From: Nemertoderma westbladi
Lineage: Eukaryota; Animalia; Xenacoelomorpha
Length of the DNA stretch: 64,000 bases
Reading direction: 5' to 3'
NCBI GenBank assembly: GCA_032718475.1
Contig: JAUCBJ010000896.1
Span: forward strand, 1 to 64,000
Shown: piece after piece, positions 1 through 64,000 of the stretch
Position numbering within the stretch: position 1 is the first letter of the stretch
Layout of the letters: every line of letters starts with the position of its first letter
Program-made: the position numbers and the translations under genes
Notes under the pieces: model-generated
The model's database searches: none
What the model saw: only the letters and a program-made list of their open reading frames with translations
What the model was told of the DNA's origin: nothing

Positions 1-29
1 AACGATATACTCTACCTTTACAAGCGTTT

Positions 30-8800: not shown

Positions 8801-8904
8801 TTAAAGGCTAGTTTTTTCGCCTATCAAAAAACCCCAAATCTGCCTCACACAAGTAAAATAGCCCACTATGAATAGACCATCTCAGCTAAGGAAACTGTAA
8901 TTGT

Positions 8905-19709: not shown

Positions 19710-19998
19710 CGGAAGCCAGGCGCCACGCAGTCTGTCTGTGACCATTAATCATAAGAATGTAATTTAAAGTGATAAATTAACATACAATGGTATCTATACT
19801 AAGGTTAGTTACTAATAATTGTTCAATAATAGGTCTTAATACTTGCCGCCTTTGATTTCCTTTGAGACTATATTGATTGCATAAAGCTCTCTGATGTCAG
19901 AGTCAGCTCCTTTCCTATCGCAGTAAATCCAACAGGCGTCTGCGGCGACAAAGAATGGAAGCTGTACCTCATCTAGTGTGGGTTGGATGTTTCCTTAA
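19710..19998. repeat. Dispersed ~285-bp repeat; diverged second copy at 52509-52786
   Basis: Shared GGAAGCCAGGCG...TTAATCATAAGAATGTAATTTAAAGTGATAA...GTGTGGGTTGGATGTTTCCTTAA. Confidence 0.8.
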
Positions 19999-20074
19999 CA
20001 ATTTGCGTACTAAAGATAAATTACATAAATTTTTACTTCCAATGACCAAGAAAATATATTTGACCAAAGAGGAT

Positions 20075-20300
20075 GTAGAGACATTACCCCGCGCCCGGGA
20101 AGAGACGTGACCCCGTGCCCGTGTAGAGATGTGACCCCGCGCCCGTTTAGAGACGTGACCCTGCACCCGAGTAGAGATGTGACACATCACCCCGTGCCCA
20201 TGTAGAAGCGTGACCCGGCGCCCTTGTAAAGACGTGACCCCGCGCCCGGGTAGAGACGTGACACATAACCCCGTGCCCATGTAGAAGCGTGACCCCGTGT
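20075..20300. repeat. GC-rich minisatellite, first block
   Basis: Units GTAGA(A/G)(G/A)CGTGAC(ACATCAC)CCCG(C/T)GCCC of about 22 or 29 bp. Confidence 0.9.
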
Positions 20301-20991
20301 GTTATAAATAGTATTACATTTTATTAACAAATAATTTCGAAAAGTTGTATGATACTTTTATGCAAGGTGGCTATGTAGACACCTACAGAAAGTTTCAGAC
20401 TAATTGCTCAAAAATTGTAGAAGTAGTAGGGTTTTGAAGTTGACATTTTCTTTAAAAAAATACTTTGAGATAATCGACATTTCCTTATACATACTAATAG
20501 TAATTTCATTAGGAATCCCTAAATGGAAATTGTTATAACTTGAAAACTAAAAGAGCTATTAAATAGCGGTTTTCAGATTTGAAAAAACCATTCAATGGTG
20601 CATTATAATAGACCATAAAAAAATTCGATACATTTTTGACCAAAATGATGTCCCCCCCCCCCCCCCTTAATTATTAATAATTGTCTGAGAATTGTCTGTG
20701 TCGCAATGTAAGGCATTGATGCTACGCCTTGTTTTTATCCCCTTTTTATCCTATGAAAATGGTTTTATCATGAGGTTTTTTGTTATAGAATAAATATTTG
20801 ACCTTCTGACTGTAAGTACTGTAGCTAACAATTTTGTGTGTGAGCTAGTAGCCTACATGTTATTAGATTGTAAAAAAATTAAAATTATACTTTTCTCATC
20901 AATTAAATTTCTCTGAAATAATTTATGAAACATAGCTAGTAATTTGTATTTGATAATAGGATTGCTAGTAATCATTTGCTACTATAGCTAG

Positions 20992-22165
20992 TTTTTTTTT
21001 ATAATTTAATTTATTAATTCAAAAATATTGGTACAGTAAAAACAAGGTACAAAGTTTCACATATGCATAATAATGGTATTACGAAGATATTACGCACGAT
21101 TAATTAAGATTGCTGTAATAATATAAACTTTTAGAGTTCGCTCTACACGATATTAGATAGTACTGCGTCGCAGTACCGCTCGCCACAGAGTCTACAACAG
21201 CAACTACTAGAGGCTGCGTGAAAACGCCCTGTCGAGCAAATATGGTGATGGTATCCGTGCATTGCTAAACGTGAGAGAATTTGTCGAGACTTTTGGTTGG
21301 AGTTCGCCCAACTTCGATCAGAGTGGAGTCCTAAAGACCAAAATTCACTTTGGATGTCATCGAGTTTTTCATTAATATTACTGTGTGATATTAAACTCTG
21401 TTGTGAGTGGAAGATTTAACTTGTCCACCAACTCCAGTGCCAACGGAGGTTCCTGAGCCAATGCGTAGACTAGGCGATTTTTACTAAATTTTGAAACTGA
21501 TAGAGTCTTCTTCAGATAGACTGTTTTAATTTTATCTAAAGTTTCCATATCACTGGATTTCAGATGGGGCCATATTACTCGTAAACCACTTGTTATGACC
21601 GGTACAATCTTAATAGAAAATAAGCACATCGCTGTCGATACTGACAATAAGTGCGGATCGTGTATGGAATGGATTGATTTTAAACATTTACAAGTGACTG
21701 CAACACAATGTTTGGTAAACGATAAGGACGGTTGAAAAATCATTCCAAGATAATTGTAGTTATTTACTATTTTGACTAGTTTTCCATTTAAGTAAAATTT
21801 ATCGTTCAGACACAACTTCCCACCTCGTCGAAACTTCATAATAGCAGTTTTATCCAAATTAACTTCAATACCATATGCTTGTGTCCAATCCCAAAGGGCG
21901 TCTAATGCGGCTTGAATTTCTTCTCTAGTATGGCCGTAAAATAAAAGGTCATCAGCAAACAGCAATATTACAACTTTGCCTACTTTCCGTACTGCTTCTC
22001 TAACAAAACCAAAAATATCAGAAATAAAAATCACAAACAATAAAGGACTGAGCCATTCACCCTGTGCCAATCCCCGTATCTGGGCTAAAATCTTAGATAA
22101 CCGCAGTCCATCATAAATTCTAATAAAATTTGTTTACAAAATGGCTTTAATTATTCTGTAGAGGC
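20992..22165 (-). mobile_element. 5'-truncated LINE (RT C-terminal half, ORF 21378-22070) with poly(A) tail
   Basis: QGEWLSPLLF, LLFADD, VNLDKTAIM, YNYLG RT motifs; AATAAA and an A-run near 20992-21015 on the minus strand. Confidence 0.85.
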
Positions 22166-22319
22166 TTTCTTTAGTTTTTTTTTTACAAAATATACAGAAG
22201 AGATGGCTGTCAAAATACAGTTTGCGGCCTACTATTCACAAATGTAAATTATATACTTTTTTTTATTTTAACAATTTTATTTAATACGGGTATAACGATG
22301 ACGAGACGATAGGGACATG

Positions 22320-24535
22320 ATGCCGCGCCCGGGTAGAGACGTGACACATCACACCGTGCCCGTGTAGAAGCGTCACCCCGCGCCCGGGTAGAGAAGTGAC
22401 ACATCACCCCGTGCCCGTGTAGAAGCGTGATCCCGCGCCCGGGTAGAGACGTGACACATCACCCCGGCCTGTGTAGAAGCGTGACCCCGCGCCTGGGTAG
22501 TAGAGACGTGACACATCCCCCCCGTGCCCATGTAGAAGCGTGATCCTGCGCCCGGGTTGAGACGTGACACATCACCCCATGCCCGTGTAGAAGCGTGACC
22601 CCGCGCCCGGGTAGAGACGTGACACATCACCCCGTGTCCATGTAGAAGCGTGACCCCACGCCCATGTAGAAGCGTGACCCTGCGCCCGTGTAGAGGCGTG
22701 ACCCCGCGCCAGTGTAGAAGCATGACCCTGCGCCCGAGTAGAGACGTGACCCCGCGCCTAGGTAGAGACGTGACACATCACCCAGTGCCTGTGTAGAAGC
22801 GTGACCCCGCACCCGTGTAGAAGCATGACCCTGCGCCCGTGTAGAGACGTGACCCTGCGCCCGGGTAGAAACGTGACACATCACCCCGTGTCCGTGTAGA
22901 AGCGTGACCCCATGCCCAGGTAGAGACGTGACACATCACCCCGTGCCCGTGTAGAAGCGTGACCCCGTGCCCGGGTAGAGACGTAACCCCACGCCCGGGT
23001 AGAGACGTGACACATCACCCCGTGCCCATGTAGAAGCGTAATCCCGCGTCCGGGTAGATACGTGACACATCACCCTGTGCCCGTATAGAAGCGTGACCCC
23101 GCACCCATGTAGAAGCATGACCCTGCGCCCGTGTAGAGACGTGACCCTGCGCCCGGGTAGAAACGTGACACATCACCCCGTGTCCGTGTAGAAGCGTGAC
23201 CCCATGCCCAGGTAGAGACGTGACACATCACCCCGTGCCCGTGTAGAAGCATGACCCTGCGCCCGTGTAGAGACGTAACCCCACGCCCGGGTAGAGACGT
23301 GACACAACACCCCGTGCCCATGTAGAAGCGTGACCCCGTGCCTGGGTAGAGACGTGACACATCACCCCGTGCCCTTGTAGAAGCGTGACCCCATGCCCAG
23401 GTAGAGACGCGACACATCACCCCGTGCCCGTGTAGAAGCGTGACCCCGTGCCCGGGTAGAGACGTGACACATCACCCCGTGTCCGTGTAGAAGCGTGAGC
23501 CCGCGCCCGTGTAGAGACGTGACCCCACGCCCGGGTAGAGACGTGACACATCAGCCCGTGCCCATGTAGAAGCGTAATCCCGCGTCTGGGTAGATACGTG
23601 ACACATCACCCTGTGCCAGTATAGAAGCGTGACCCCGCGCCCGTGTAGAAGCATGACCCTGCGCCCGTGTAGAGATGTGACACTGTGCCCGTGTAGAGAC
23701 GCGACACATCACCCCATGCCCGTTTAGAAGCGTGACCCAGCGCCCGGGTAGAGACGTGACACATCACCCCGTGCCAGTGTAGAAGCGTGACCCAGCGCCC
23801 GGGTAGAGAAGTGACACATCACCCCGTGCCCGTGTAGAAGCATGACCCTGCGCCCGTGTAGAGACGTGACCCGGCACACGGGTAGAGACTCGACACATCA
23901 CCCCATGCCCGTGTAGAAGCGTGACCCCGCGCCAATGTAGAAACGTGACCCTGCGCCCGTGTAGAGACGTGACCCGGCGCCCGGGTAGAGACGTGACACA
24001 TCACCCGGCGCCCGGGTAGAGACGTGACCCCGCGCCCATGTAGAAGCGTGACCCTGCGCCCATGTAGAGGCGTGACCCCGCGCCCGTGTAGAAGCATGAC
24101 CCTGTGCCCGAGTAGAGACGTGACCCCGCGCCTAGTAGAGACATGACACATCACCCAGTGCCCGTGTAGAAGCGTGACCCCGCGCCCGTGTAGAAGCGTG
24201 ACCCTGCGCCTGTGTAGAGACGTGACCCCGCGCCCGGGTAGAGACGTGACACATCACCCTGTGCCTGTGTAGAGACGTAACCCCGCACCCGTGTAGAAGC
24301 GTGACCCTGCGCCCATGTAGAGACGTGACCCCGCGCCGGGTAGAGACGTGACACATCACCCCGTGCCCGTGTAGAAGCGTGAACCTGCGCCCGGGTAGAG
24401 ACGTGACACATCACCCCGTGACTGTGTAGAAGCGTGACCCCGCGCCCATGTAGAAGCGTGACTCTGCGCCCCTGTAGAGACATGACCCAGAGCCCGGGTA
24501 GAGACGTGACACATCACCCCGTGCCCATGTAGAGA
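22320..24535. repeat. GC-rich minisatellite, main block; continues at 52011-52408 after the BEL insertion
   Basis: Same 22/29-bp units; the interrupted unit GT-AGAGA-CGTGAC rejoins across the insertion. Confidence 0.95.
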
Positions 24536-26456
24536 TATTGTGAAGAGACAGTAACAATACCTGCAATATCATACTACAAAGTTTGTGAATCAAATCATAA
24601 TCCGACCTTCTCACCAAAACAGTAAACTCCAAGTAAGCAAATATATTGCAGTATCGGTCTCTTATAACCGGTGAGGCAGAAAACAGTCTACGAACAGACA
24701 AACTTCGATAAAACAAAATCCCGCGCAGCGAATCCTAAAATCAGGCTGACTCACTGACGGACTAAGGGGCTCGTATACTTTGCCGCGGTGTGATTTATAT
24801 GGTTGGGCGAAAAGGACGCTAGCTAGGTGCAGAGATTTGGAGATATCTAACTAGCGGGCAAAGTGCAGTACGGACAAAAGTTAATTTTATATATTTTGAG
24901 GTGTAAATAATTTCTAACGCGCATGTGTTAATTCTGAACAGTCAAGATCAGTTTTGCTCCTTCATATATATAATTACTGGGTACGGTGTGCATTTTACGA
25001 ATATTCTAATTTTGTAACTTGTAGGTCCAATACTCACGAATGATAAGGCTCCTTCCCCTCTTGCGTATTTCCAGGACTCAAATTCAGGCATAAGGTTAAT
25101 ACTACGCCCAGAATTCGGCAATTTTAATTTACCAGGTCCCTAATACTAAGAAGAAATGTGTTAGTTTACTACAGTAGGCGTACTGTTACTAATAGCTAGC
25201 CTGGCGTCCTATCTAGAATTTTGGTTACCTAGGTGGGCTTGGTAACTTCCTATCAGGATGTCGGCGGGGACACGGTAGATGTTAGTATATCCCTAATAGC
25301 CTCAATTTATTTTGCGCCTAGTCGTAAACTGCCCTACCGTCTGAACGGTACAATCCTAATTCAGGTGAAACACAGTAACTCTCCTGGCCTACAAGTTCTA
25401 ATGCAATGGACACCGTTGTACTACAAATAGTCACAGACGCACCTGTACTTAGCAAGAGTTAGGCGTACAGTTTGCTGCACCCTACCAATGTGTATGCTTT
25501 GTACCGGTGTGCCTACGTCCTATCTGCGTACTAGTATCTCTGCCTGAGCTCTCCTCTCCTCTCCCCTGTAGGAATATGAAGGTCTACTGCGGTTTTTTCC
25601 TGAATCAAAACAGTACAGTCCCTAGATGTAATTTTAGGCGTACAGCGTGTCACTACCTCTACCTTCGATCTTTGGTCTTATACTTAGGTAGCAAGGCATC
25701 GAACGCTGTCTAACCTTTCAGGCGATGGGCGAATAACTGAGAGTGATATTGCGGGTTGTCTCCTGTCTACATTCCTTGGATGTTCCCGTTCATTGCTGCG
25801 GCCCGATGTTTAGCCAGCCATCCTGTCCCTCAGTTGAGTTCACCGTGGTGAAGCATAGTAAAACAGATAGAAAAGGGCAGATGTGACAAGTATTTCTAAC
25901 TTTTATTACAAAATCAAACAATAACTATTATACAATAAACAGAATAGATTAAATCGCAAGACTGAGATGTAATAGTGATGTAGTGAATATTGAAGATTGA
26001 GATTGATAACTAATGAACGAAACTGCACCTTTTATACCAAATTTGTGCCGCAATCAATCGAGAAAATTCTCGATTGTTCTATGAGTTCTAACAGAGTTTT
26101 AAAGATAGCCATTGGTCCAGCAAATATATAACTTGTACGACATTGGTTACAATCTAATAACTACAGTCTCATTGGTTAATCTTACTTCGAGCAAATGCAA
26201 TTAATTTGTAGCGGTCAATTTAAATGAGTTGAAATTCTGCACAAAAAACAATTCGCACCTACTAGGATTCGAACTCAATACACACTACATATAATTTCCA
26301 ACGCTCTACCGACTGAGCTACTGAACCACTTGACTAATCATCGTACAAATAGATATAGCAAATACAAATGAGGACTTAATGTAATCTTTAGCAAAGTTAA
26401 TTCGAATAAAATAAAAATTTTGAAAATCCACGGCGTTTAGAGAATATAATTCTATA
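24536..26456 (-). repeat. Family 1 3' LTR (1921 bp, TATAG...CAATA); PPT-like GGAGCGG at 26457-26463
   Basis: Nearly identical to 46961-48881 (offset 22425); boundaries fixed by the TSD and the partial third copy. Confidence 0.9.
26243..26328 (-). promoter_or_regulatory. tRNA-derived Pol III unit in LTR U3 (also near 48668-48753 and 51799-51882)
   Basis: TAGCTCAGTCGGTAGAGCG (A box/D arm), GAGTTCGAATCC (B box), then TTTTTT; no acceptor or anticodon stem. Confidence 0.65.
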
Positions 26457-27243
26457 CCGCTCCATGAAAACAGGATATTATAGTGCATAAAATATACGGT
26501 TTTCACCAATAATCAATCAAATTATAGAATACTTAGGGCGTACTTACATATTTACAAATTAAATTTCAAACAATACTTCCTTTCTACATAATGATTCGAT
26601 ACAAAATAATTACAAATTCAAACTTTACATATTTAAGGCTTTACTAAGTAAGTACAATATAAATCTAAATTAAATTCACCAATATAAATCTATTGCATCT
26701 CAATATTGCAAAATTCAAATAATTACAAATACAAATAAATGAAAATCATAAGAAAGGCTCGCGAGTCTTCCATCTACTATTGCATCTCAAATATTGCATA
26801 AATTCAAATAATTACAAATACTTTCGTGCCTAAATATAGATTGCATAAGTTCGGAATAATTACAAATATGAGTCTTTCTAAGTACAAAACTTTCTAACTA
26901 TAAAACTTTCTAAATACAAAATATAACGCTTTACAAATGAAACTATAAGAAAGGCCCACGAGTCTTCCATCTACTCTTACTTTCTATCTCACTGTAAATA
27001 CAAATACTGCTTATAAGATATATATTGCATAGTATTCGGAACAATATAAATTGCATAAGTTCGGAATAATCACAAATATAAAATATAAATCTTGCAAAAT
27101 ACAAATTCTTACTAAATATAAATCTTACTAAATACGAGTTCTTCCAGAATACAAAACTTACTAAATATAAAACATATAATTCAAATAAATCACAAATTCA
27201 CAAGAAAGGCTCACGAGTCTTCCGTCCACCCTTGCCCTCCCTT

Positions 27244-28708
27244 TTATTGCTTAGTAGATCGAGCCCTGCCTCGTCCTCGAAAACTGCGCACAGGTGACTT
27301 TGCTCGCGATATGGGACTCGTGGGGCGAGTCACTGGTTTTGTTTGGACGTTGGGAGACGGTGCGCCCGTTTCCTCACAAATTCGTCTATTTGGTATCCCG
27401 AAACCTCTACCGATTCCTCGTGACCGATCAGTTGTCACTACAGTTGGTAAAACGTCTGGGAACGCGCGGGAAGCGGACGACGCAGACCCAAGAGTAGCTT
27501 GCGCCCCCTTTTGATCAGCTGGTGTATGTCCCGATCCTCCTGTTGGTTCTCTAGGAAGCGATACCGTATCCCGAGTAATTCGAATAGTCGGCTCGACTCC
27601 CTTGCGTTCTTCTATATTAATAGACTTCTTTAATTGTTGGCTAACTTTCTGGACCCTTATGATCCTACCCTGCCCGTCCTCCCGAGGGTGACGTGCAGAC
27701 GGCGCAACCAGAGTGGCTGGTATATTTGTCGCCTCTAGGATCTCCTCTTCCTCGAATACGCTCGCTCGTATACGCCTATGATAGAACGCGGCTCGGTACG
27801 CCCATGCGACGTTTAACCAAGCTCCTTTATTCCGCTTTTCAGTTCGGAAACGATCAAATTCACCATACGTGATACGATTTACGACTTTCTGAAAATTCCA
27901 CGTGTTCTTTTTGTCCGGGTGAATCTGTAATAGATACTCGCGCACCACTCGGAATCCACTGTCGTGAGGCAAGATGTCGACTACCTCGATAAGTTCGTCA
28001 TATTGGGGCATAGCGGAGATGTATCCTTCCGACATCATCGTTTGGGGATTTACCGCCCAAAATCCAAGATGCGCCCTCATCGGAAATCGTCTTCTTTGTG
28101 CCGATACATGTTCATCGGCTAAATCTTCCCACTCATCGAACAGTTTTCTCACGAGTTTTACAGATTCGTGTTCATAAGGTATGTCTCTTAGTTGGCATTC
28201 AGATGCTCGATGCCCTTTTATATTGCATTAAGTACATTGAGCCATAAATCTCCAGCAAGTATAAAAGGTATGAGACCCTTGATCTCCACACCATCCACAG
28301 ATTAGTTGAGTCGTAGTAATGTGCTTTCCACTGCACTTTGTCATATGATGTCCAGCGACGCCACATTTACAACACATCGTATTGGCAGGGTACCACACTC
28401 GTTCATATATAAGATCTCCAATTGGTCGAGCGCTTCCTCCCACACTATAATCATAATCATCTGGATCTATGGGTTGGTAGGTTTCTGAAGGTTGTATACA
28501 AACTACAGCATCTGTTGCTTCAAGTTGTCGAATCTCCGTCTGAGATTTCTTCGGGAGGTTCCTTTCAATCTCAAGAAGTTCCTCTAAAGGATCGTCAGTG
28601 ATCGTAGTCGTTACTTCGAAATCATCACCAAGGTGACCGATAGGCGCGCGCGTCTGCCGTGATTCATCCATAACCTCCACGATACGTTCTCCTTCATAGG
28701 GTAACAAT
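27244..28708 (-). pseudogene. Accessory ORF, 3' part: triple CCHC zinc knuckle, conserved helical domain and basic tail; nonsense codon at 28228-28230
   Basis: CCKCGVAGHHMTKC, CGWCGDQGSHTFYTC, CT*CNIKGHRASEC; the duplicate copy has TAT (Tyr) at the stop position. Confidence 0.85.
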
Positions 28709-29642
28709 GTAAATGTTAGGGTTATGATTGATGGTGTTATGCGGGACTGATATACTGTATGTATATAGGTAGGAGGATTCCAAAGAGATACCGGTTACTA
28801 CCTAGGTCAGTACGGCAGGAGGTAGAGATAGATAGATTCAGTACAGCAGTACATTGTATTCGTCCGTCCTGCTTTACTTTATGCCGTCATACCATCAGTA
28901 TGGGACTGCAGGTTTATAGGAATATATAGATATATATGATCATCACTTATCTTTATTATATCTTCACGTTTACCTTGGGAACTAACAAATGGCGCTGCGA
29001 GTTGAAAGAAACCTATGGGCCTTGATACTGACTAACTGGACTACAGACCAGGGCCACGCATTGCTGCTTTGATTAGGCCTATTGATTTGATACTACATCA
29101 GCAGGACGGTAATTGCAACTACAGAACTACTGACCAAATTGCTACATCAGTACAGACCGGTACGGATCAACCGTACTGAGGTCACTGCTACAGCTTTTAC
29201 ATACGTACCGTCTCACCGTCGGTTGCTACCGCCACAACCAGACAACGATTACCGTTGCTTTCAAAACTTCTACCTACCATTCCAACCAGCCTAGACCGTA
29301 CATTCCTGCATTCGTTTTTTCTTACACCGGTATTACAAACCGGGCTGGCAGGAGGGAAATAGGCCAACCCTGCTACTCTAAGCCTACAGTCTGACAGTAA
29401 CTACAAACATTTCTACCAGTAAATTGCTATTGCAGTATTGTAACCCGTCTTTAAAAATATTCCAGTTATACTTGTTGACTGGAAGGAAAGAACCTGTATT
29501 CTTTGGCCATTCTGCCATTCGTTCATTTGTTCTACAATATGCAATACACCGGTACTCATTACTGATATACCTGTATACAGAGCAATACTTGTCAGACTAC
29601 TGGTAGGCCTAGATCTGCCAAATAAACATTTCTATACATACA

Positions 29643-34751: not shown

Positions 34752-35114
34752 TATGGGAATAGGAGACTATAATAAGCCTGAACATAATACTAAAAGATTC
34801 ATATTGTGTGTTTTATATGAATTATTTTGTGGGGGGAAATTGTTAGGGTTATGATTGATGGTGTTATGCGGGACTGATATACTGTATGTACATAGGTAGG
34901 AGGATTCCAAGGAGATACCTGTTACTACCTAGGTCAGTACGGCAGGAGGTAGAGATAGATAGATTCAGTACAGCAGTACATTGTATTCGTCCGTCCTGCT
35001 TTACTTTATGCCGTCATACCATCAGTATGGGACTGCAGGTTTATAGGAATATATAGATATATATGATCATCACTTATCTTTATTATATCTTCACGTTTAC
35101 CTTGGGAACTAACA

Positions 35115-46949: not shown

Positions 46950-46960
46950 CATATTCCTAC
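46950..46960 (-). promoter_or_regulatory. Non-tRNA primer-binding-site candidate GTAGGAATATG, complementary to LTR 47993-48003
   Basis: Abuts the LTR end; no TGG; perfect 11-bp inverted match inside the LTR. Confidence 0.65.
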
Positions 46961-48881
46961 TATTGTGAAGAGACAGTAACAATACCTGCAATATCATACT
47001 ACAAAGTTTGTGAATCAAATCATAATCCGACCTTCTCACCAAAACAGTAAACTCCAAGTAAGCGAATATATTGCAGTATCGGTCTCTTATAACAGGTGAG
47101 GCAGAAAACAGTCTACGGACAGACAAACTTCGATAAAACAAAATCCCGCGCAGCGAATCCTAAAATCAGGCTGACTCACTGACGGACTAAGGGGCTCGTA
47201 TACTTTGCCGCGGTGTGATTTATATGGTTGGGCGAAAAGGACGCTAGCTAGGTGCAGAGATTTGGAGATATCTAACTAGCGGGCAAAGTGCAGTACGGAC
47301 AAAAGTTAATTTTATATATTTTGAGGTGTAAATAATTTCTAACGCGCGTGTGTTAATTCTGAACAGTCAAGATCAGTTTTGCTCCTTCATATATATAATT
47401 ACTGGGTACGGTGTGCATTTTACGAATATTCTAATTTTGTAACTTGTAGGTCCAATACTCACGAATGATAAGGCTCCTTCCCCTCTTGCGTATTTCCAGG
47501 ACTCAAATTCAGGCATAAGGTTAATACTACGCCCAGAATTCGGCAATTTTAATTTACCAGGTCCCTAATACTAAGAAGAAATGTGTTAGTTTACTACAGT
47601 AGGCGTACTGTTACTAATAGCTAGCCTGGCGTCCTATCTAGAATTTTGGTTACCTAGGTGGGCTTGGTAACTTCCTATCAGGATGTCGGCGGGGACACGG
47701 TAGATGTTAGTATATCCCTAATAGCCTCAATTTATTTTGCGCCTAGTCGTAAACTGCCCTACCGCCTGAACGGTACAATCCTAATTCAGGTGAAACACAG
47801 TAACTCTCCTGGCCTACAAGTTCTAATGCAATGGACACCGTTGTACTACAAATAGTCACAGACGCACCTGTACTTAGCAAGAGTTAGGCGTACAGTTTGC
47901 TGCACCCTACCAATGTGTATGCTTTGTACCGGTGTGCCTACGTCCTATCTGCGTACTAGTATCTCTGCCTGAGCTCTCCTCTCCTCTCCCCCGTAGGAAT
48001 ATGAAGGTCTACTGCGGTTTTTTCCTGAATCAAAACAGTACAGTCCCTAGATGTAATTTTAGGCGTACAGCGTGTCACTACCTCTACCTTCGATCTTTGG
48101 TCTTATACTTAGGTAGCAAGGCATCGAACGCTGTCTAACCTTTCAGGCGATGGGTGAATAACTGAGAGTGATATTGCGGGTTGTCTCCTGTCTACATTCC
48201 TTGGATGTTCCCGTTCATTGCTGCGGCCCGATGTTTAGCCAGCCATCCTGTCCCTCAGTTGAGTTCACCGTGGTGAAGCATAGTAAAACAGATAGAAAAG
48301 GGCAGATGTGACAAGTATTTCTAACTTTTATTACAAAATCAAACAATAACTATTATACAATAAACAGAATAGATTAAATCGCAAGACTGAGATGTAATAG
48401 TGATGTAGTGAATATTGAAGATTGAGATTGATAACTAATGAACGAAACTGCACCTTTTATACCAAATTTGTGCCGTAATCAATCGAGAAAATTCTCGATT
48501 GTTCTATGAGTTCTAACAGAATTTTAAAGATAGCCATTGGTCCAGCAAATATATAACTTGTACGACATTGGTTACAATCTAATAACTACAGTCTCATTGG
48601 TTAATCTTACTTCGAGCAAATGCAATTAATTTGTAGCGGTCAATTTAAATGAGTTGAAATTCTGCACAAAAAACAATTCGCACCTACTAGGATTCGAACT
48701 CAATACACACTACATATAATTTCCAACGCTCTACCGACTGAGCTACTGAACCACTTGACTAATCATCGTACAAATAGATATAGCAAATACAAATGAGGAC
48801 TTAATGTAATCTTTAGCAAAGTTAATTCGAATAAAATAAAAATTTTGAAAATCCACGGCGTTTAGAGAATATAATTCTATA
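46961..48881 (-). repeat. Family 1 LTR in the 5' position (upstream of gag)
   Basis: Near-identical to 24536-26456. Confidence 0.92.
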
Positions 48882-51785
48882 CCGCTCCATGAAAACAGGA
48901 TATTATAGTGCATAAAATATACGGTTTTCACCAATAATCAATCAAATTATAGAATACTTAGGGCGTACTTACATATTTACAAATTAAATTTCAAACAATA
49001 CTTCCTTTCTACATAATGATTCGATACAAAATAATTACAAATTCAAACTTTACATATTTAAGGCTTTACTAAGTAAGTACAATATAAATCTAAATTAAAT
49101 TCACCAATATAAATCTATTGCATCTCAATATTGCAAAATTCAAATAATTACAAATACAAATAAATGAAAATCATAAGAAAGGCTCGCGAGTCTTCCATCT
49201 ACTATTGCATCTCAAATATTGCATAAATTCAAATAATTACAAATACTTTTGTGCCTAAATATAGATTGCATAAGTTCGGAATAATTACAAATATGAGTCT
49301 TTCTAAGTACAAAACTTTCTAACTATAAAACTTTCTAAATAGAAAATATAATGCTTTACAAATGAAACTATAAGAAAGGCCCACGAGTCTTCCATCTACT
49401 CTTACTTTCTATCTCACTGTAAATACAAATACTGCTTATAAGATATATATTGCATAGTATTCGGAACAATATAAATTGCATAAGTTCGGAATAATCACAA
49501 ATATAAAATATAAATCTTGCAAAATACAAATTCTTACTAAATATAAATCTTACTAAATACGAGTTCTTCCAGAATACAAAACTTACTAAATATAAAACAT
49601 ATAATTCAAATAAATCACAAATTCACAAGAAAGGCTCACGAGTCTTCCGTCCACCCTTGCCCTCCCTTTTATTGCTTAGTAGATCGAGCCCTGCCTCGTC
49701 CTCGAAAACTGCGCACAGGTGACTTTGCTCGCGATATGGGACTCGTGGGGCGAGTCACTGGTTTTGTTTGGACGTTGGGAGACGGTGCGCCCGTTTCCTC
49801 ACAAATTCGTCTATTTGGTATCCCGAAACCTCTACCGATTCCTCGTGACCGATCAGTTGTCACTACAGTTGGTAAAACGTCTGGGAACGCGCGGGAAGCG
49901 GACGACGCAGACCCAAGAGTAGCTTGCACCCCCTTTTGATCAGCTGGTGTATGTCCCGATCCTCCTGTTGGTTCTCTAGGAAGCGATACCGTATCCCGAG
50001 TAATTCGAATAGTCGGCTCGACTCCCTTGCGTTCTTGTATATTAATAGACTTCTTTAATTGTTGGCTAACTTTCTGGACCCTTATGATCCTACCCTGCCC
50101 GTCCTCCCGAGGGTGACGTGCAGACGGCGCAACCAGAGTGGCTGGTATATTTGTCGCCTCTAGGATCTCCTCTTCCTCGAATACGCTCGCTCGTATACGC
50201 CTATGATAGAACGCGGCTCGGTACGCCCATGCGACGGTTAACCAAGCTCCTTTATTCCGCTTTTCAGTTCGGAAACGATCAAATTCACCATACGTGATAC
50301 GATTTACGACTTTCTGAAAATTCCACGTGTTCTTTTTGTCCGGGTGAATCTGTAATAGATACTCGCGCACCACTCGGAATCCACTGTCGTGAGGCAAGAT
50401 GTCGACTACCTTGATAAGTTCGTCATATTGGGGCATAGCGGAGATGTATCCTTCCGACATCATCGTTTGGGGATTTACCGCCCAAAATCCAAGATGCGCC
50501 CTCATCGGAAATCGTCTTCTTTGTGCCGATACATGTTCATCGGCTAAATCTTCCCACTCATCGAACAGTTTTCTCACGAGTTTTACAGATTCGTGTTCAT
50601 AAGGTATGTCTCTTAGTTGGCATTCAGATGCTCGATGCCCTTTTATATTGCAATAAGTACATTGAGCCATAAATCTCCAGCAAGTATAAAAGGTATGAGA
50701 CCCTTGATCTCCACACCATCCACAGATTAGTTGAGTCGTAGTAATGTGCTTTCCACTGCACTTTGTCATATGATGTCCAGCGACGCCACATTTACAACAC
50801 ATCGTATTGGCAGGGTACCACACTCGTTCATATATAAGATCTCCAATTGGTCGAGCGCTTCCTCCCACACTATAATCATAATCATCTGGATCTATGGGTT
50901 GGTGTTTCTGAAGGTTGTATACAAACTACAGCATCTGTTGCTTCAAGTTGTCGAATCTCCGTCTGAGATTTCTTCGGGAGGTTCCTTTCAATCTCAGGAA
51001 GTTCCTCTAAAGGATCGTCAGTGATCGTAGTCGTTACTTCGAAATCATCACCAAGGTGACCGATAGGCGCGCGCGTCTGCCGTGATTCATCCATAACCTC
51101 CACGATACGTTCTCCTTCATAGGGTAACAATGTAAATGTTAGGGTTATGATTGATGGTGTTATGCGGGACTGATATACTGTATGTATATAGGTAGGAGGA
51201 TTCCAAGGAGATACCGGTTACTACCTAGGTCAGTACGGCAGGAGGTAGAGATAGATAGATTCAGTACAGCAGTACATTGTATTCGTCCGTCCTGCTTTAC
51301 TTTATGCCGTCATACCATCAGTATGGGACTGCAGGTTTATAGGAATATATAGATATATATGATCATCACTTATCTTTATTATATCTTCACGTTTACCTTG
51401 GGAACTAACAAATGGCGCTGCGAGTTGAAAGAAACCTATGGGCCTTGATACTGACTAACTGGACTACAGACCAGGGCCACGCATTGCTGCTTTGATTAGG
51501 CCTATTGATTTGATACTACATCAGCAGGACGGTAATTGCAACTACAGAACTACTGACCAAATTGCTACATCAGTACAGACCGGTACGGATCAACCGTACT
51601 GAGGTCACTGCTACAGCTTTTACATACGTACCGTCTCACCGTCGGTTGCTACCGCCACAACCAGACAACGATTACCGTTGCTTTCAAAACTTCTACCTAC
51701 CATTCCAACCAGCCTAGACCGTACATTCCTGCATTCGTTTTTTCTTACACCGGTATTACAAACCGGGCTGGCAGGTGGGAAATAG
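48882..51785. repeat. Duplicate of 26457-29362: PPT, accessory ORF 3' part, Gypsy LTR (51137-51410), PBS and leader
   Basis: Near-identical sequence with a 2-bp deletion near 50903. Confidence 0.92.
49669..50868 (-). CDS. Duplicate triple-CCHC accessory ORF segment, open through all knuckles
   Basis: 399-codon open frame with three CCHC knuckles and FDEWEDLAD..RAHLGFWAVNP; frameshifted upstream. Confidence 0.75.
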   Translation of the reverse strand: MGGSARPIGDLIYERVWYPANTMCCKCGVAGHHMTKCSGKHITTTQLICGWCGDQGSHTFYTCWRFMAQCTYCNIKGHRASECQLRDIPYEHESVKLVRKLFDEWEDLADEHVSAQRRRFPMRAHLGFWAVNPQTMMSEGYISAMPQYDELIKVVDILPHDSGFRVVREYLLQIHPDKKNTWNFQKVVNRITYGEFDRFRTEKRNKGAWLTVAWAYRAAFYHRRIRASVFEEEEILEATNIPATLVAPSARHPREDGQGRIIRVQKVSQQLKKSINIQERKGVEPTIRITRDTVSLPREPTGGSGHTPADQKGVQATLGSASSASRAFPDVLPTVVTTDRSRGIGRGFGIPNRRICEETGAPSPNVQTKPVTRPTSPISRAKSPVRSFRGRGRARSTKQ

Positions 51786-51798
51786 TAATAGTAATAGG

Positions 51799-52010
51799 AA
51801 AACAATTTGCACCTACTAGGATTCGAACTCAATACACACTACATATAATTTCCAACGCTCTACCGACTGAGCTACTGAACCACTTGACTAATCATCGTAC
51901 AAATAGATATAGCAAATACAAATGAGGACTTAATGTAATCTTTAGCAAAGTTAATTCGAATAAAATAAAAATTTTGAAAATCCACAGCGTTTAGAGAATA
52001 TAATTCTATA
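51799..52010 (-). repeat. Partial family 1 LTR (first 212 bp) forming the true element end
   Basis: Matches 26245-26456 and is followed by TSD AGAGA. Confidence 0.9.
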
Positions 52011-52408
52011 AGAGACGTGACCCCGCGCCCGTGTAGAACCATGACCTTGCGCCCGTGTGGAGAAATGACCCCGCGCCCGGGTAGAGACGTGACACATCAC
52101 CCCGTGTAGAAGCGTGACCCTGCGCCCGTGTAGAGCTGTGATCCCGCGCCCAGGTAGAGACGTGACACATCACCCCATGCCCATGTAGAAGCGTGACCCC
52201 GCGCCCATGTAGAAGCGTGACCCCGCACCCGTGTAGAGACGTGACCCCGCACCTGGGTAGAGACGTGACACATCACCCCGTGCCCGTCTAGAAGCGTGAC
52301 CCGGCGCCCGTGTAGAAGCGTGACCCCACGCCCGTATAGAGACGTGACCCCGGGCTCGGGTAGAGACGTGACACATCACCTCGTGTAGAAGCGTGACCCC
52401 GCGCCCGG
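52011..52408. repeat. GC-rich minisatellite, last block
   Basis: Same units as 22320-24535. Confidence 0.95.
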
Positions 52409-54162
52409 ATTTGGAGTGTTGTAATTTAGTAACCTTTAATTTTATTATTCTTTTTTCACTGTTCAGTGACGCCCCTGTCTGTAACTGGTAGGCAGTCTGT
52501 TGGTAACTGGAAGCCAGGCGGCAGCAGTCTTTCTGTGAAAGTTAATCATAAGAATGTAATTTAAAGTGATAACTAACACACAGTGGTATCTATACTAAGG
52601 TTAGTTACTAATAATTGTTCTATAAAGGTCTTAATACTTGCCGCCTTTGATTGCCTTTATGAGACTTTATTGATTGCATAAGCTCTCTGCTCTCAGCTCT
52701 TTTCCTTTCGGCTGTAAATCCAAAAGGCGTCTGCGGCATAGAAGGGAAGTTTTACCTTATAAAGTGTGGGTTGGATGTTTCCTTAAACCCCGGTTTATAC
52801 ACTCAAAAAAATTTATTGTTCTCCAAACTGCCAAAAACATTATCAGTACGACAACATAATCTATTTAAAAAATATAAGAATGTGATGGGATCCACGAAGG
52901 ATCCCGATTTATCCGTTTGTCAATTTACGCGTCCCCGCCGTGTGTGAAAGGTAAAAGAGTTTGCGTTGTTCGTTGTATATAATTTCCGGGTATAGATAGG
53001 TATAGATAATGTGTTATAGTATAGAGTATCTAAATGTTGGTATATGGAAGGCGGGAAACGGTAATTGAAGTCCCGGTACTTCCCTAGCTAAACTATCCCA
53101 ACTAACACCAATAACATACTGAGATAACTGAACTGAATGATTGCTGATACCTAATAATATATTGCACGGTTTGGCCTTGCTACAGTAAATAGCCGATGCT
53201 TCCCCCCTGATTGGCTAATATCCTTGTTGGCGCCCTTTGGAGTGTTCCCGTTCACTCCAGCTATTCTCCCTCTGTTAGGGGTTTGGCCCCTGACCCTCAT
53301 TGTGCGTCTCTCCTTCCCACTTTGTTGGGGTGACACGAGTTATTGATTATCCAATCTCGTGGCCCCCAATATTGCTTAATGATTGACTTTATGGGTTCGT
53401 GTTAGCGGAATTGAATAAGCTAACACTCCCCCCCATGCTATCTTCCCGGTGAGAAGATAGCATCCACCTTTAAGTGCGCTACAATTCCGCTGGACCCCGA
53501 TCTAGTATCGGGTGTGGGGTGGAACTATTTTCTCTCAGAGCCGGCTTTCCAGGCCGCTCCCTATGGGTATGATATCGCTACCCGGGTTCGCCTGGCATCC
53601 CATGTCGGGCTGATTGTGCGCTCCTCTCACACGACTTTTGTTTCCCCAACACTTTCGCCACTTTGACTCCACTCCGTTCTCACCCTGACTCTCTTCTACT
53701 CCTCTTCTCTCTCACTCTAACTCTCGGACTTCCCTGTCCCTCACTCAGCCTCTTATCCTCCCCCCCCACACTTGAATTGCATCCGCGCTCTCTCCGCACA
53801 CCGCACTATCACCTTTACTCGACCCCTCTTTGACCTCCTTATCCTTTCTGACGAGTCCCACCCCCCTCCTGTGCTGTCGCACTCAAGAAGTGTGAAATCG
53901 TCTGGTGTCTCGTCCATAGTGCCATAGTCAGTTAGCCCCCCAGTCCCAGTAGCTAATTGAGAAAGGTTGTATGACTATAGTACTTACTTCGAATGTATAT
54001 TTCATGACTAAACTACTGATTACTACGTACGTACATACAAATTGCACTTATTTAATTATTTGCATCATTTTGAATTTGTACTTAATAGTTCGTACTTCCC
54101 ACGTGGCGCCTTCCAGGCGTACCACGTCCAAGTCTCAGTTTCTCTCTCCCAGCCCTGGGAAC

Positions 54163-55592: not shown

Positions 55593-56641
55593 TCACCCGT
55601 AGGTGGTGCCTTGCCAAGGTGTGACGGGATCTACGGATCCCGGTTTATCCGTTGGGTTTTCTATCTACGCGTCCCCGCCGTGTGTGAAAGGTAAAAGAGT
55701 TCTGATGTTCGGTTATATGTATAAGGTATAATATAGTTGATATATAGGCTTTAGTATAGTATGGCACAGTTACCGGTAGATAAGTATGATGGCAGTAGCG
55801 GACGGTGATAGAAGTCACCGTTCCACCCTACTGAACTAACTGAGTAAACTGAGTGAATGATTGCTGTACAGGTAATATATACTGCACGGGTTTGGCCGTT
55901 ACAGTACTTAGTCGATGCTGTCCCCCCATTGGCTAATATCCCTGTTGGCACCCTTTGCCCCCCTCTGAAGTGCTTCCCTTCGCCCTTGCTGTTCTCTCTT
56001 GGTTAGGGGTTTGGCCCCTGACCCTTATTGTGTGTGTCTCCTTTGGGGCCTGTTGTCCCCGTTTACTGGGGTGACACGAGGTTGATTGGTAATCAACCTC
56101 GTGCTCCCAATATTGCTTAATGGCTCACTCTATGGGTTTGTGTTAGCGGAATTGGATAAGCTAACACTCCCCCCCATGCTATCTTCCCGGTGAGAAGATA
56201 GCATCCAACTCAAGTGCGCTACAATTCCGCTGGATCCCGATCTATTATCGGGTGTGGGGTGGGTCTATTTTTTCGGAGTCGGCTTTCCAGGCCGCTCCCT
56301 ATGGGTATGATGTCACTACCCTCTGGCGTCTCGTGTCGGGCCGATCGTGCGCTTCTCTCATACAATTTTTGTTTCCCCAACACTCTCACCACTCTAACTC
56401 CGCTCTCTGACTCAACTCGCTCTTACCCTCTCCCCACACCTGAATCGCACTCCTCTCTCTCGCCAACAGTTCCTCTCACTATCTCCTCTCTAATCTCTGC
56501 CACTCTCTAAGGCCCTGACCTCTAATGCTACCCCTGTGCTATCATACTATCTACCTACTACTCACTTGCTAACTATCTAACTCTCTTACTAACTCTAACT
56601 ATCTCTCTAAGCCTACTAACTTTAACTCTAACTCTTTTACT

Positions 56642-60106: not shown

Positions 60107-61663
60107 CTAATCTTCCGTGGTGGGGCGCCCGTAGCCCCCCCCCCACCCGCCACATCTAACTTCAATATCTCTTACTTCGTCTCTACACTCCTCTCTAGTC
60201 GACACACTATCTCTACTACGGCTGGGTCTATTCACCCCCGCCTCTCTCTCTACTACTGCGAGGCCTACCAGGCCAACCTCGGGTTGGCTCAACCCTGCTA
60301 CCTCCTGCCTACCAACTACGTGGCCTACCAGGCCGCCGTCGGGTTGGCGCAACCCCGCCACTTCCTGCCTACTAACTACGTGGCCTACCAGGCCGCCGTC
60401 TGCCGGGCTATACACGTCTGACGCGTTCATATTAATAGCACCATTCCCAATATTATTTGTTAAATCAATTAAATTATTAGAATTTGAAACGGGATTATTA
60501 TTTAAATTATTTAAGTTAGAATTATTATTATTTTCAAAATTTAAATTGCTATTCGAATTATTTGAATTATTTTGATTATTCTGAATATTTGAATTAATAT
60601 TATTATTTGAATTTAAACTTAAATTACTACTACCGGGTAAAATATTTCCTGTAATAAAGGGATTAGGGTTATTTACTACAGTACTATTAATACCAATATT
60701 TCCTAACGCACTACTACTACCCCCCTCACCCGTACGGTTACTGTACGTACTGTACGTGTACCGCACGCTCTGTTCTCTTGCCTCACGCTCTTCGCGTTCA
60801 CTCTCTTGCTCCTTCCTTCCCCTCAGTCGCCACTCTAATTCTTCCATTTTTAATTTATATGCCATGCGCTCACTCTCTCGCACCCGTCTTTCTTTTGCGG
60901 AGGATGTAGCAGACTTATCGGTTGCGACGGACTCCCGCCGCCCCTCCGTCCTACTAACTTTCCCCCACTCTCCGGGGTTCTCGCTGACCAACGAGACCGA
61001 ATCCTCGGAGCTAACCTCGGATTCGCCCTCGTGCGGTCCCGCCCAACCCACTAACTTAACTTCCCTGGCATCGACTAAGTATGGCCCTATGTACACTACA
61101 CCAGGCCCCATACCCCTACGTTCCCATAGCCCAAACAGTTCGAAGGCAACCCCTCTCGCTCTCTCCTCGGCCAGTTCTCCCTGCCCAGAACGCACTAGGT
61201 AATCAAAGTATCTGTTCGACTCACCTAGTCGTCTCCTCAACTTCACCTGGTCTATCTCAGCCCCTCCTCTAGCTTCCTTCAGTTGCTCCCGGGTCGCGGC
61301 GTAGGCTCGTCGGAGCCGTACGACCCCGACGCCCTCGTCGTCGACATCTCCTCTCTCCCTCCGGGTTCGGCGTCGTACCGTCGGCCCCACCGTTGCCGTT
61401 CCGGTGGGCCGTCCGTCGCCCTCGGCCTCTCGCTGGCCGGCGACATCGGCATATCGACCGCCGCCCTGTGTCGACTCGTCTCTCTCCTCTCCAAACTCGT
61501 CCTCTCGCTGTAGACGACCCCCCGCATCTTGGTTCGCCGGGTTACTCGTTATCGACGTAGCATCGACCGGCGTCGTGGGTCCGTATTGTCTCGCCGTGGC
61601 CTCGCGGATCGTTAGATCGTCGTCCGGGGTCCGCGGCGGTGTCGTTCCTCTCTCTCGACTCAT
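60107..61663 (-). CDS. Gag N-terminal low-complexity region (R/E-rich, Asn-rich tract, 20-aa repeats)
   Basis: ATG about 170 nt after the 5' LTR; 518-aa ORF; frameshifted toward the downstream gag ORFs. Confidence 0.65.
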   Translation of the reverse strand: MSRERGTTPPRTPDDDLTIREATARQYGPTTPVDATSITSNPANQDAGGRLQREDEFGEERDESTQGGGRYADVAGQREAEGDGRPTGTATVGPTVRRRTRRERGDVDDEGVGVVRLRRAYAATREQLKEARGGAEIDQVKLRRRLGESNRYFDYLVRSGQGELAEERARGVAFELFGLWERRGMGPGVVYIGPYLVDAREVKLVGWAGPHEGESEVSSEDSVSLVSENPGEWGKVSRTEGRRESVATDKSATSSAKERRVRESERMAYKLKMEELEWRLRGRKEQESEREEREAREQSVRYTYSTYSNRTGEGGSSSALGNIGINSTVVNNPNPFITGNILPGSSNLSLNSNNNINSNIQNNQNNSNNSNSNLNFENNNNSNLNNLNNNPVSNSNNLIDLTNNIGNGAINMNASDVYSPADGGLVGHVVSRQEVAGLRQPDGGLVGHVVGRQEVAGLSQPEVGLVGLAVVEREAGVNRPSRSRDSVSTREECRDEVRDIEVRCGGWGGGYGRPTTED

Positions 61664-61823
61664 CTTCGTCTTTAGTAGCCGTCAGTCACAGTCTGTCAGG
61701 CCAGTTGGTTGGATCTAGTTCTATCACTGTCAGACTGTTAGGGCAGCTGCTAGGATTCTATCTCTGTCAGGGCAGCTGGGCGGATCTAATTCTATCACTG
61801 TCAGGGCAGCTGGGCGGATCTGA

Positions 61824-61832
61824 TTCTATCAC
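61824..61832 (-). promoter_or_regulatory. Non-tRNA primer-binding-site candidate GTGATAGAA, complementary to LTR 62018-62026; reiterated at 61790, 61756 and 61719
   Basis: Abuts the LTR end; no TGG; inverted match inside the LTR with extended pairing. Confidence 0.65.
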
Positions 61833-62796
61833 TGTGACGGGATCTACGGATCCCGGTTTATCCGTTGGGTTTTCTATCTACGCGTCCCTGCCGTGTGTGA
61901 AAGGTAAAAGAGTTCTGATGTTCGGTTATATGTATAAGGTATAATATAGTTGATATATAGGCTTTAGTATAGTATGGCACAGTTACCGGTAGATAAGTAT
62001 GATGGCGGTAGCGGACGGTGATAGAAGTCACCGTTCCACCCTACTGAACTAACTGAGTAAGCTGAGTGAATGATTGCTGTACAGGTAATATATACTGCAC
62101 GGGTTTGGCCGTTACAGTACTTAGTCGATGCTGTCCCCCCATTGGCTAATATCCCTGTTGGCACCCTTTGCCCCCCTCTGAAGTGCTTCCCTTCGCCCTT
62201 GCTGTTCTCTCTTGGTTAGGGGTTTGGCCCCTGACCCTTATTGTGTGTGTCTCCTTTGGGGCCTGTTGTCCCCGTTTACTGGGGTGACACGAGGTTGATT
62301 GGTAATCAACCTCGTGCTCCCAATATTGCTTAATGGCTCACTCTATGGGTTTGTGTTAGCGGAATTGGATAAGCTAACACAAGGCGCAAACGTGATGAGT
62401 GATGAGTTTAGGTGGTTTAAGTTCAGTTCGATGGCCTATCTCTCTCTGAATTTCTGAGTTATTAAATTGTACCCTAAATTTGCAATTTTCAGCCCTATTC
62501 TTCTATTTATTTTAATTTACTTTTAACCCTACTGTCCTACTACTTGCTACTGCCTATGGATTATTCTATCTCCTAATCCACATTCTGGCCTACTCTGTGG
62601 GCCTGTGCAGTACAACAGTATGCATCGCGTGGCCACATGATTTATCCAGCTGTACTCACATGCCCCCCTCTCGCTACTAATTACTGACTGCTAACTAATA
62701 TCTATATCATATATACCCTTCTACCTCTATCTCTATCTTTTACTAACTAGTACTACATACTTTCTTGCTAACTCTTACTCTCTCTAACTAACTAAC

Positions 62797-63594: not shown

Positions 63595-63996
63595 CTAAGG
63601 TGCCCCTTCTAATAGACAGCATTTCCCTACAGCTCTCCTGTAGGTTTTTCTGTCCTTCGCACCTATCTTGCCACCTATCCACACTTCTACAGATCGGACT
63701 CTTCCGTCCTCATCGTAGTAAGTGCCTACAACTCTCGCCAACCGCCACTGGTTGTTGATGATAGTATCATCCGTGACGATTACGAGATCTCCCTCTTTTA
63801 GCTCCCTATTCGACTTCCTCCACTTGCTTATTTTGTGAAGCGTGGGTAGGTATTCCTCAACCCACCTCCTCCAATACTCTGCGCTTATCGCTTTAGCGAC
63901 TTTCCAACTCTGGCGGGAGTATATGTTGTCTGGATCTACACCCCGCATATTGATGGTCGCTGGCCTTTCCATTAGAAAATGGCTTGGCGTCAGCAC
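63595..63996 (-). CDS. BEL/Pao integrase C-terminal region (partial pol)
   Basis: LTPSHFL, YWRRWVEEYLPTL, LKEGDLVIV, WRLARV, DGRVRSVEV. Confidence 0.92.
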   Translation of the reverse strand: MLTPSHFLMERPATINMRGVDPDNIYSRQSWKVAKAISAEYWRRWVEEYLPTLHKISKWRKSNRELKEGDLVIVTDDTIINNQWRLARVVGTYYDEDGRVRSVEVWIGGKIGAKDRKTYRRAVGKCCLLEGAP

Positions 63997-64000
63997 ATCT

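Follow-up and report, generated by a model that had tools for sequence, protein, structure and literature searches.

Predicted self-priming from its own LTR in a non-autonomous BEL/Pao derivative and in related LTR elements

What primes minus-strand DNA synthesis in an LTR element whose primer binding site (PBS) matches its own LTR and not a tRNA? The question is raised by an element, here called family 2, at 62379-55620 on the minus strand of the window, by which we mean the whole 64,000-nucleotide stretch of DNA analyzed, a repeat-rich eukaryotic sequence with nested LTR elements. A preliminary description of this locus had drawn attention to a self-complementary PBS close to a predicted transcript 5' end, and had compared it with a PBS of the same architecture in another element, family 1. 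Its coordinates and sequence strings all agree with the sequence, and its reading as self-priming is supported here by the predicted duplex, by shuffle and cross-locus controls, and by a survey of sibling families. We consider it probable, judging from sequence, that family 2 primes its minus-strand DNA with a piece of its own RNA, by way of a PBS that matches its own LTR. The features on which the argument is built are collected in Table 1.

Table 1. Positions of the features discussed in the text
Feature	Positions	Strand	Remarks
Family 2, 5' LTR	61833..62379	-	547 bp, TGTTAG...TCACA
Family 2, 3' LTR	55620..56166	-	99.45% identical to the 5' LTR
Target site duplication CCTTG, 5' side	62380..62384	-	Sequence
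Target site duplication CCTTG, 3' side	55615..55619	-	Sequence
Polypurine tract GGGGGGGAG before the family 2 3' LTR	56167..56175	-	G-rich; the same tract precedes the sibling LTR
ORF1, gag position, 524 codons	60107..61681	-	ATG at 61663
ORF2, 494 codons	57730..59214	-	Cys-His region and BEL/Pao-type aspartic protease (PF13650); repeats behind it
CCAAT block	62141..62160	-	19/20 identical in the sibling LTR
TATA-like box TATATATT	62087..62094	-	Block 13/18 identical in the sibling LTR
Initiator-like block, predicted start site	62053..62080	-	TCATTC at 62073, TCAG with A at 62063; 23/28 identical in the sibling
Predicted self-primer, 46 nt	62018..62063	-	Core TGAC TTCTATCAC at 62030-62018, 3' end at 62018; from duplex, shuffles, and ensemble
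Alternative hairpin of 12 bp, spanning the predicted cut	62010..62040	-	Loop CTTCTA, -17.8 kcal/mol
7-bp hairpin at the U5 end, beside the PBS	61838..61855	-	P 0.99-1.00; also formed by the sibling LTR, where the loop differs
PBS unit, copy 1	61799..61832	-	34 nt, flush with the LTR end, no TGG
PBS unit, copy 2	61765..61798	-	34 nt
PBS unit, copies 3 and 4	61694..61764	-	Start at 61764 and 61727, degenerate
Sibling 3' LTR, host of the family 2 insertion	52881..53425	-	71% identical to the family 2 LTR
Integrase C terminus of the sibling (host) element	63595..63999	-	DUF5641, E 3e-24
Family 1, self-primer candidate CATATTCCTAC	47993..48003	-	11 Watson-Crick pairs, 2/300 shuffles
Family 1, PBS GTAGGAATATG	46950..46960	-	Flush with the family 1 LTR end

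Family 2 lies nested inside a sibling LTR element. Its LTR pair emerged from self-comparison of the window as a 547-bp direct repeat with 544 identical positions and 3 differences. No family match was found for ORF1. In a BEL-only set, ORF2 matches BEL/Pao loci (tblastn, E 4e-26) and BEL/Pao proteins (blastp, E 4e-23), whereas its best match to the Gag-Pol of the gypsy element in the window reaches an E value of only 0.04; an unbiased search among longer proteins, which is a weak test, gave no relatives at 1e-5. No reverse transcriptase (RT), RNase H, or integrase was found between the family 2 LTRs, and only the integrase tail of the sibling Pol is present in the window. Its LTR identity, the absence of an RT, the match of ORF2, and its position within a BEL/Pao sibling mark family 2 as young, non-autonomous, and derived from BEL/Pao, but not as a full member of the family. 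The ICTV describes the Belpaoviridae (Semotivirus) as tRNA primed, with an 18-nt PBS for tRNA-Arg or tRNA-Gly, and their replication as poorly understood (PMC8742986). Family 2 resembles them in its TG...CA LTR termini, 5-bp target duplication, polypurine tract, and BEL/Pao-type Gag-protease with its Cys-His region, but differs from them in having neither the tRNA-Arg or tRNA-Gly PBS nor a BEL/Pao Pol with RT, RNase H, and integrase.

The leader of family 2, GTGATAGAA TCA GA TCCGCCC AG CTG, begins at 61832, directly after the LTR end TCACA. As previously described, the LTR segment CAG TA GGGTGGA ACGG TGA C TTCTATCAC at 62046-62018 pairs with this leader over 9+3+7 (one G-U)+3 bp. A ViennaRNA duplex extends the pairing to 9+3+7+4+5 bp across 36 leader nucleotides, at -37 kcal/mol and with 62054-62018 on the LTR side. 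These 36 paired nucleotides correspond to about one 34-nt leader unit, and the leader holds four tandem copies of this unit, two of them good and two decayed. Since the bulged form is kept in the units, they would appear to have arisen by duplication of the leader rather than by copying of the primer. The first 24 leader nucleotides pair with LTR positions 62041-62018 at -27.1 kcal/mol, compared with -17.0 +/- 2.3 kcal/mol in shuffled LTRs, and a pairing as stable was obtained in 2 of 2,000 dinucleotide shuffles of the LTR (23 of 2,000 when 30 leader nucleotides were used). The exact 9-mer was present in 52 of 20,000 shuffles, and the family 2 leader formed at most 8 bp with 20 other LTRs.

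The preliminary description had also placed the pairing segment within the first ~46 nt of the RNA. The spacing behind this claim holds, with the A of TCAG 31 nt past the TATA-like box and 46 nt to 62018, although the start site itself is a prediction from conserved motifs. A TATATAT at 61959, downstream of the primer, was considered as an alternative promoter and is less likely, with only 10 of the 24 positions of its block identical in the sibling. The sibling keeps the CCAAT, TATA, and initiator blocks but not the downstream TATATAT, and this favors the upstream promoter as the predicted start of the family 2 RNA. The predicted primer would then be 46 nt long, or 54 nt from the other initiator, and the distance from the predicted start to the PBS would be 230 nt.

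In three folding trials that included both good PBS copies and began at the predicted start, the primer core paired with copy 1 or copy 2 at a summed probability of 0.87 to 0.92. The 366 nucleotides of 62065-61700 are not unusually stable as a whole (z -1.1; 15/100 shuffles). The segment can alternatively fold into a hairpin, for which a role as a switch had been suggested. This hairpin, of 12 bp, does exist, but it is a minor form when the PBS is present (P 0.03 to 0.07) and is not kept throughout the lineage, so that a switch is unproven; without the leader its probability rises to 0.91. The LTR of the sibling also folds a hairpin at this position, with the primer core in the loop. No general masking hairpin was found in the intron-less loci, the structure being clear in family 2 and the sibling and unremarkable in family 1, L005, L055, and L062. 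The 3' copy of R is the likelier place for the hairpin to form. Neither a known ribozyme nor a tRNA-like element was recognized in 61500-62500, where an Rfam search gave a single chance-level match (E 0.55, under the gathering score), and ARAGORN found no tRNA gene within the 64-kb window.

Family 1 was taken to be the BEL/Pao element at approximately 48890-35006, the sole other element found in the window with such a PBS. It carries Peptidase_A17 and DUF5641, and the RT, RNase H, and integrase of the BEL/Pao clade are present. The gypsy element (LTRs at 28711-28987 and 34838-35114) was rejected as family 1; it has an ordinary TGG PBS and a self match of 4 nt. In family 1, the PBS pairs with the LTR over 11 bp and over a second stem of 7 bp, the two sites lie 1,032 nt apart, and the first TGG after the LTR is at leader nucleotide 145. 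The primer-PBS helix reaches a probability of only 0.12 in a 1.18-kb fold. We also noted GTGAGT donor-like sites at 47462 and 47179 on the minus strand, downstream of the primer in the 1.9-kb LTR of this element; splicing from these donors could shorten the distance between primer and PBS. The preliminary description had argued that an unrelated sequence with the same architecture makes coincidence unlikely. We likewise found no similarity between the LTRs of the two families, but both belong to BEL/Pao and are therefore not independent in origin; what they represent is covariation within one lineage of shared ancestry.

Our survey of other BEL/Pao loci supports the self-complementary PBS on a wider basis. 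The query, a profile of the family 1 Pol and 29 of the 120 relatives listed, retrieved 115 loci, 45 of which have a direct repeat around pol. We took the 21 loci in which both repeat copies end inside the contig, leaving out loci cut by a contig end and excluding L083 and L092, whose 78 to 83% repeats have no LTR ends. Three of these (L051, L078, and L112), with a repeat ending unlike an LTR, were dropped, and 18 readable loci remained, with the LTR ends of L055 and L102 shifted by 2 and 1 nt by eye. A shared TGG-type PBS is found in 4 of the 18 loci, and 14 have none.

Scored by rule, 13 of the 14 non-TGG loci have a match of 11 to 15 nt to their own LTR, beginning 0 to 4 nt past the LTR end, where a primer must end. 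The match is contiguous (11 to 12 nt) in L005, L055, and L062, and in the other 10 loci it appears only across the junction of a GT-AG intron inside the LTR, the splicing being predicted. In the typical split case, the match starts right after a pyrimidine-rich AG and is completed by the letters preceding an upstream GT donor. Eight of the splice cases were obtained under the first acceptor rule (9 pyrimidines in 14), and L088 and L095 were added after relaxing the rule to 8; in L086, the match stays at 8 nt with one mismatch. L080 and L082 are close relatives, so the matching loci represent at most 12 lineages. Between these two, three exon-1 letters (CAC and TAA) and the facing PBS letters (GTG and TTA) change in step, and when either PBS is swapped onto the LTR of the other, the match falls from 11 to 8. 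A further nine loci with a cut 3' LTR, whose end was chosen by score, gave in 6 cases a top splice-type match of 10 to 11 nt at an LTR end that is plausible; they were not counted, because the corresponding control reached 11 nt in 8 of 72 pairs and 10 nt in 22 of 72.

The survey includes its own controls. Own-LTR matches are only 4 to 6 nt long in all four TGG loci and in the gypsy element of the window, used as a TGG control. When each PBS was placed on the LTRs of other loci, at least 10 nt matched in 2 of 418 cross-pairs and at least 9 nt in 8 of 418, and both pairs that reached 10 consisted of a TGG PBS on the 1.9-kb LTR of family 1. These results bear on the explanation that the complementarity in family 2 is due to chance, or to a one-off inverted duplication without function. 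Family 2 taken by itself leaves some room for this: its longest unbroken run is 9 bp, below the 11 to 15 of the other loci and at a length reached by those 8 cross-pairs, the fold of the whole region is ordinary, and a variant in its PBS (see below) is unlinked. The shuffle and cross-locus controls speak against this explanation, which the cross-locus survey already largely refutes, and an inverted duplication of DNA cannot make a match that is built across splice junctions in 10 loci. We regard this as the least probable of the explanations considered.

It could also be argued that the helix is a structural stem between R/U5 and the leader, serving packaging or translation control, and that priming at this site or close to it is done by a host RNA such as a tRNA half or fragment. 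Such stems are known from retroviral leaders, and half-tRNAs are used by some copia lineages (PMC6317226). However, the helix covers nucleotide +1 onward after the LTR, the only place for a primer end. The PBS, moreover, varies with every family and tracks its own LTR, whereas a host primer would fix it, as the single PBS shared by the four TGG loci illustrates. The first TGG of family 2 is found only at leader nucleotide 130, with none in the preceding 129. A structural stem with host priming is therefore quite improbable.

The four TGG loci (L101, L102, L109, and L111) fall in one clade (support 0.995) of a FastTree phylogeny, and the self-matching loci are spread over the rest of the tree, with the four contiguous cases in four places. 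The tree was midpoint rooted and comprised 99 rows, 17 loci having been left out for short RT matches (including L086, L095, and L115); since it has neither a clade test nor an outgroup, we claim no order of events. The loci in the tree with a PBS flush with the LTR (L036, L037, L062, L015, L088, and L089) form one clade (support 0.973), and in the others the match starts 1 to 4 nt later; the PBSs of families 1 and 2 are also flush, yet family 1 lies outside this clade. A TATA-like box occurs upstream in only 9 of the 21 elements and at varied distances, so a 5'-terminal primer is unsupported for the lineage as a whole. In L012, the TATA-like box lies 36 nt before the donor, which would leave an exon 1 of a few nucleotides.

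The following mechanism is the one that we consider likely. The predicted first 46 nt of the family 2 RNA would fold onto the PBS, and the RNA would be cut after UUCUAUCAC (62018/62017) to yield the minus-strand primer. By analogy with Tf1, the cleavage would be carried out by RT/RNase H, which an autonomous sibling would supply in trans. After the cut, the template would start at 62017, the strong-stop DNA would jump to the R region at the 3' end, and all sequence on the upstream side of the cut would be copied from the RNA of the 3' LTR. In the intron-bearing relatives, the intron would be spliced in the 5' copy, completing the primer, and would be inherited from the unspliced 3' copy, which could not compete for the PBS. 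An intron could thus persist inside the primer in 10 of 13 relatives, because the cut lies downstream and the LTR is copied from the 3' copy, in which the intron is retained. Families 1 and 2 would be forms without the intron; in family 2, the hairpin is the probable fold of the 3' copy and may likewise keep that copy from competing for the PBS.

A primer without any cut would be available if the natural 3' end of the RNA lay at the primer position of the 3' LTR. The same letters are indeed present there (55813-55805), and the LTR of family 2 has no A[A/T]TAAA. Among the 14 non-TGG loci, however, 11 have a single A[A/T]TAAA in the LTR, and in all 11 it lies 1 to 94 nt past the primer end, which means that R outlasts the primer, as the cut-and-jump model needs. 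The family 2 segment, when the PBS is not in cis, also folds into the hairpin (P 0.91). Priming by a natural 3' end thus seems very improbable. A different possibility is that the primer is derived from the element but acts in trans, as a short RNA made from a different transcript, either a short 5' fragment or one processed by the host, with no cut in the folded genome. Sequence cannot separate cis from trans, and a primer in trans would fit both the weak long-range fold of family 1 and the four PBS copies of family 2. Against it, the 5' copy of the genome itself pairs at a probability of about 0.9 in family 2, and an LTR that keeps a 5'-spliced intron would need a template start downstream of that intron. 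We consider priming in trans improbable and prefer a primer cut from the 5' end of the folded genomic RNA.

Variants in contigs of the same organism provided a further comparison; the search for sequencing runs gave seven, none of them registered as RNA. The letters of the sibling LTR at the primer position (53069-53061) differ from those of family 2, and it was predicted beforehand that the unseen PBS of the sibling should complement the primer site of the sibling itself. In one run (X5), a loose end extends past the end of the sibling LTR; among the loose-end rows listed, it has no TGG start, and its first six letters complement the primer-site variant of that run, a T-to-C change at 53065 present in all of the depth. 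Three contigs are mixed in this loose end (agreement 0.61), it is not linked to the LTR variant, and past the sixth letter the match breaks off, so the prediction held in part. In family 2 itself, a T-to-C change at PBS position 5 (61828) makes up 67 to 75% of the depth in all three covered runs (X2, X3, and X5). A compensating change at 62022 is not among the variants listed, in a table that omits many differences (a contig with seven differences is one row), and the change homologous to it is listed at 53065 in the sibling; the variant thus lends the model no support. One X5 contig is without one of the 34-nt PBS units.

Self-priming has been described in one other group of LTR elements and predicted in a second. 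Tf1, Tf2, and Tj1, together with the Tf1/sushi group (Tcn1) of Ty3/gypsy chromoviruses, have no tRNA PBS and show approximately 11 nt of perfect pairing to their own LTR, and for Tf1 an RNase H cut between nucleotides 11 and 12 has been demonstrated (PMC7175516, PMC4600332). The Tf1 primer consists of the first 11 nt, and LTR sequence that lies past the primer on its downstream side takes part in two flanking duplexes, an arrangement called a "pretzel" (bioRxiv 2022.12.06.519325). Family 2 shares with this group a PBS complementary to its own 5' LTR, but it lacks Ty3/gypsy chromovirus proteins and belongs to a different superfamily. It forms no pretzel, its extra stems using sequence upstream of the core, with only 2 to 3 bp and the U5 hairpin flanking the cut site; its primer is predicted from promoter motifs to be 46 nt long; its PBS is tandemly repeated; and in its relatives the primer would span an intron. 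In the TAR lineage of Ty1/copia (Houba and Osr-1), self-priming has been predicted from LTR-PBS complementarity of at least 10 nt starting 0 to 5 nt after the LTR (PMC6317226). These are plant elements, and the contiguous 10-nt rule would miss family 2, with its 9 bp, as well as the splice-built cases.

The best reading is likely that family 2 represents a predicted Tf1-like self-priming in a family that the ICTV describes as tRNA primed. Family 2 would thus work like the Tf1 type while standing outside that group, and would break the priming rule stated for its own family. For Cer7, a BEL/Pao element of Caenorhabditis elegans, a tRNA-like primer encoded by the element itself has been proposed, which would be an internal segment and not the 5' end of the LTR. 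We found no report of self-priming or of a splice-built primer for BEL/Pao in the literature searched (subscription papers, Repbase, and GyDB lay outside this scope), nor did a term search find mention of a PBS or of priming in four papers (PMC3118150, PMC554778, PMC6238403, PMC8556966); self-priming in BEL/Pao is likely new to the literature.

For the lineage as a whole, we incline slightly toward a more general proposal, namely that a large animal branch of BEL/Pao has dropped tRNA priming and uses a primer cut from its own 5' end. In most lineages the host spliceosome would assemble this primer across an intron, whose survival would depend entirely on the position of the cut downstream of it. 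Reverse transcription would then be licensed by host splicing, and the intron-less families would rely on an RNA hairpin and extra PBS copies instead. If self-priming in BEL/Pao holds, this would be a third LTR superfamily that uses it, in animals and by a different RNA architecture, and annotation that needs a TGG PBS or a contiguous LTR match would miss such elements. Completion of the primer by splicing would couple reverse transcription, at its first step, to the RNA processing of the host, and would account for the persistence of an intron within the LTR. Family 2, with 230 nt from predicted start to PBS and one predicted cut position, offers a compact test case.

Several further observations were made in the course of this work. 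Loci L079 to L115 are BEL/Pao elements, several with both LTRs, on contigs of bacterial and archaeal genome bins, and these are likely animal host DNA. LTR motif scans of metagenome and viral contigs gave no match, and protein scans of viral contigs found no relative. Within the window, pol and the 3' LTR are separated by an extra ORF region in three BEL/Pao-type elements, at 55592-54163 (minus strand), 37495-35006 with 28794-27244 (minus strand), and 1-1253 (plus strand). Each has a CCHC-like knuckle, their mutual similarity is weak (best E 1e-4), and those of the ORFs that were scanned gave no Pfam match; the insertion of family 2 lies at the start of one such region and that of the gypsy element inside another.

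A 4.8-kb block, made up of the LTR and 3' region of family 1 and a part of the inserted gypsy element, occurs at 24536-29362 and 46961-51785 with 99.5% identity; this points to a tandem array of family 1 with a shared LTR. A 212-bp repeat whose head resembles a tRNA, at 48670-48881, 26245-26456, and 51799-52010, is situated close to the beginning of the family 1 LTR and in one place outside it, and is likely a SINE carried by that LTR. Tandem arrays with units of approximately 340, 450, and 1,350 bp, together with a 24/31-bp minisatellite, occupy 4246-17600, 19990-24500, and 52011-52408. Finally, a further RT ORF fragment at 21378-22133 on the minus strand (RVT_1, E 2e-16), which ends near an A-run, is likely a truncated LINE.
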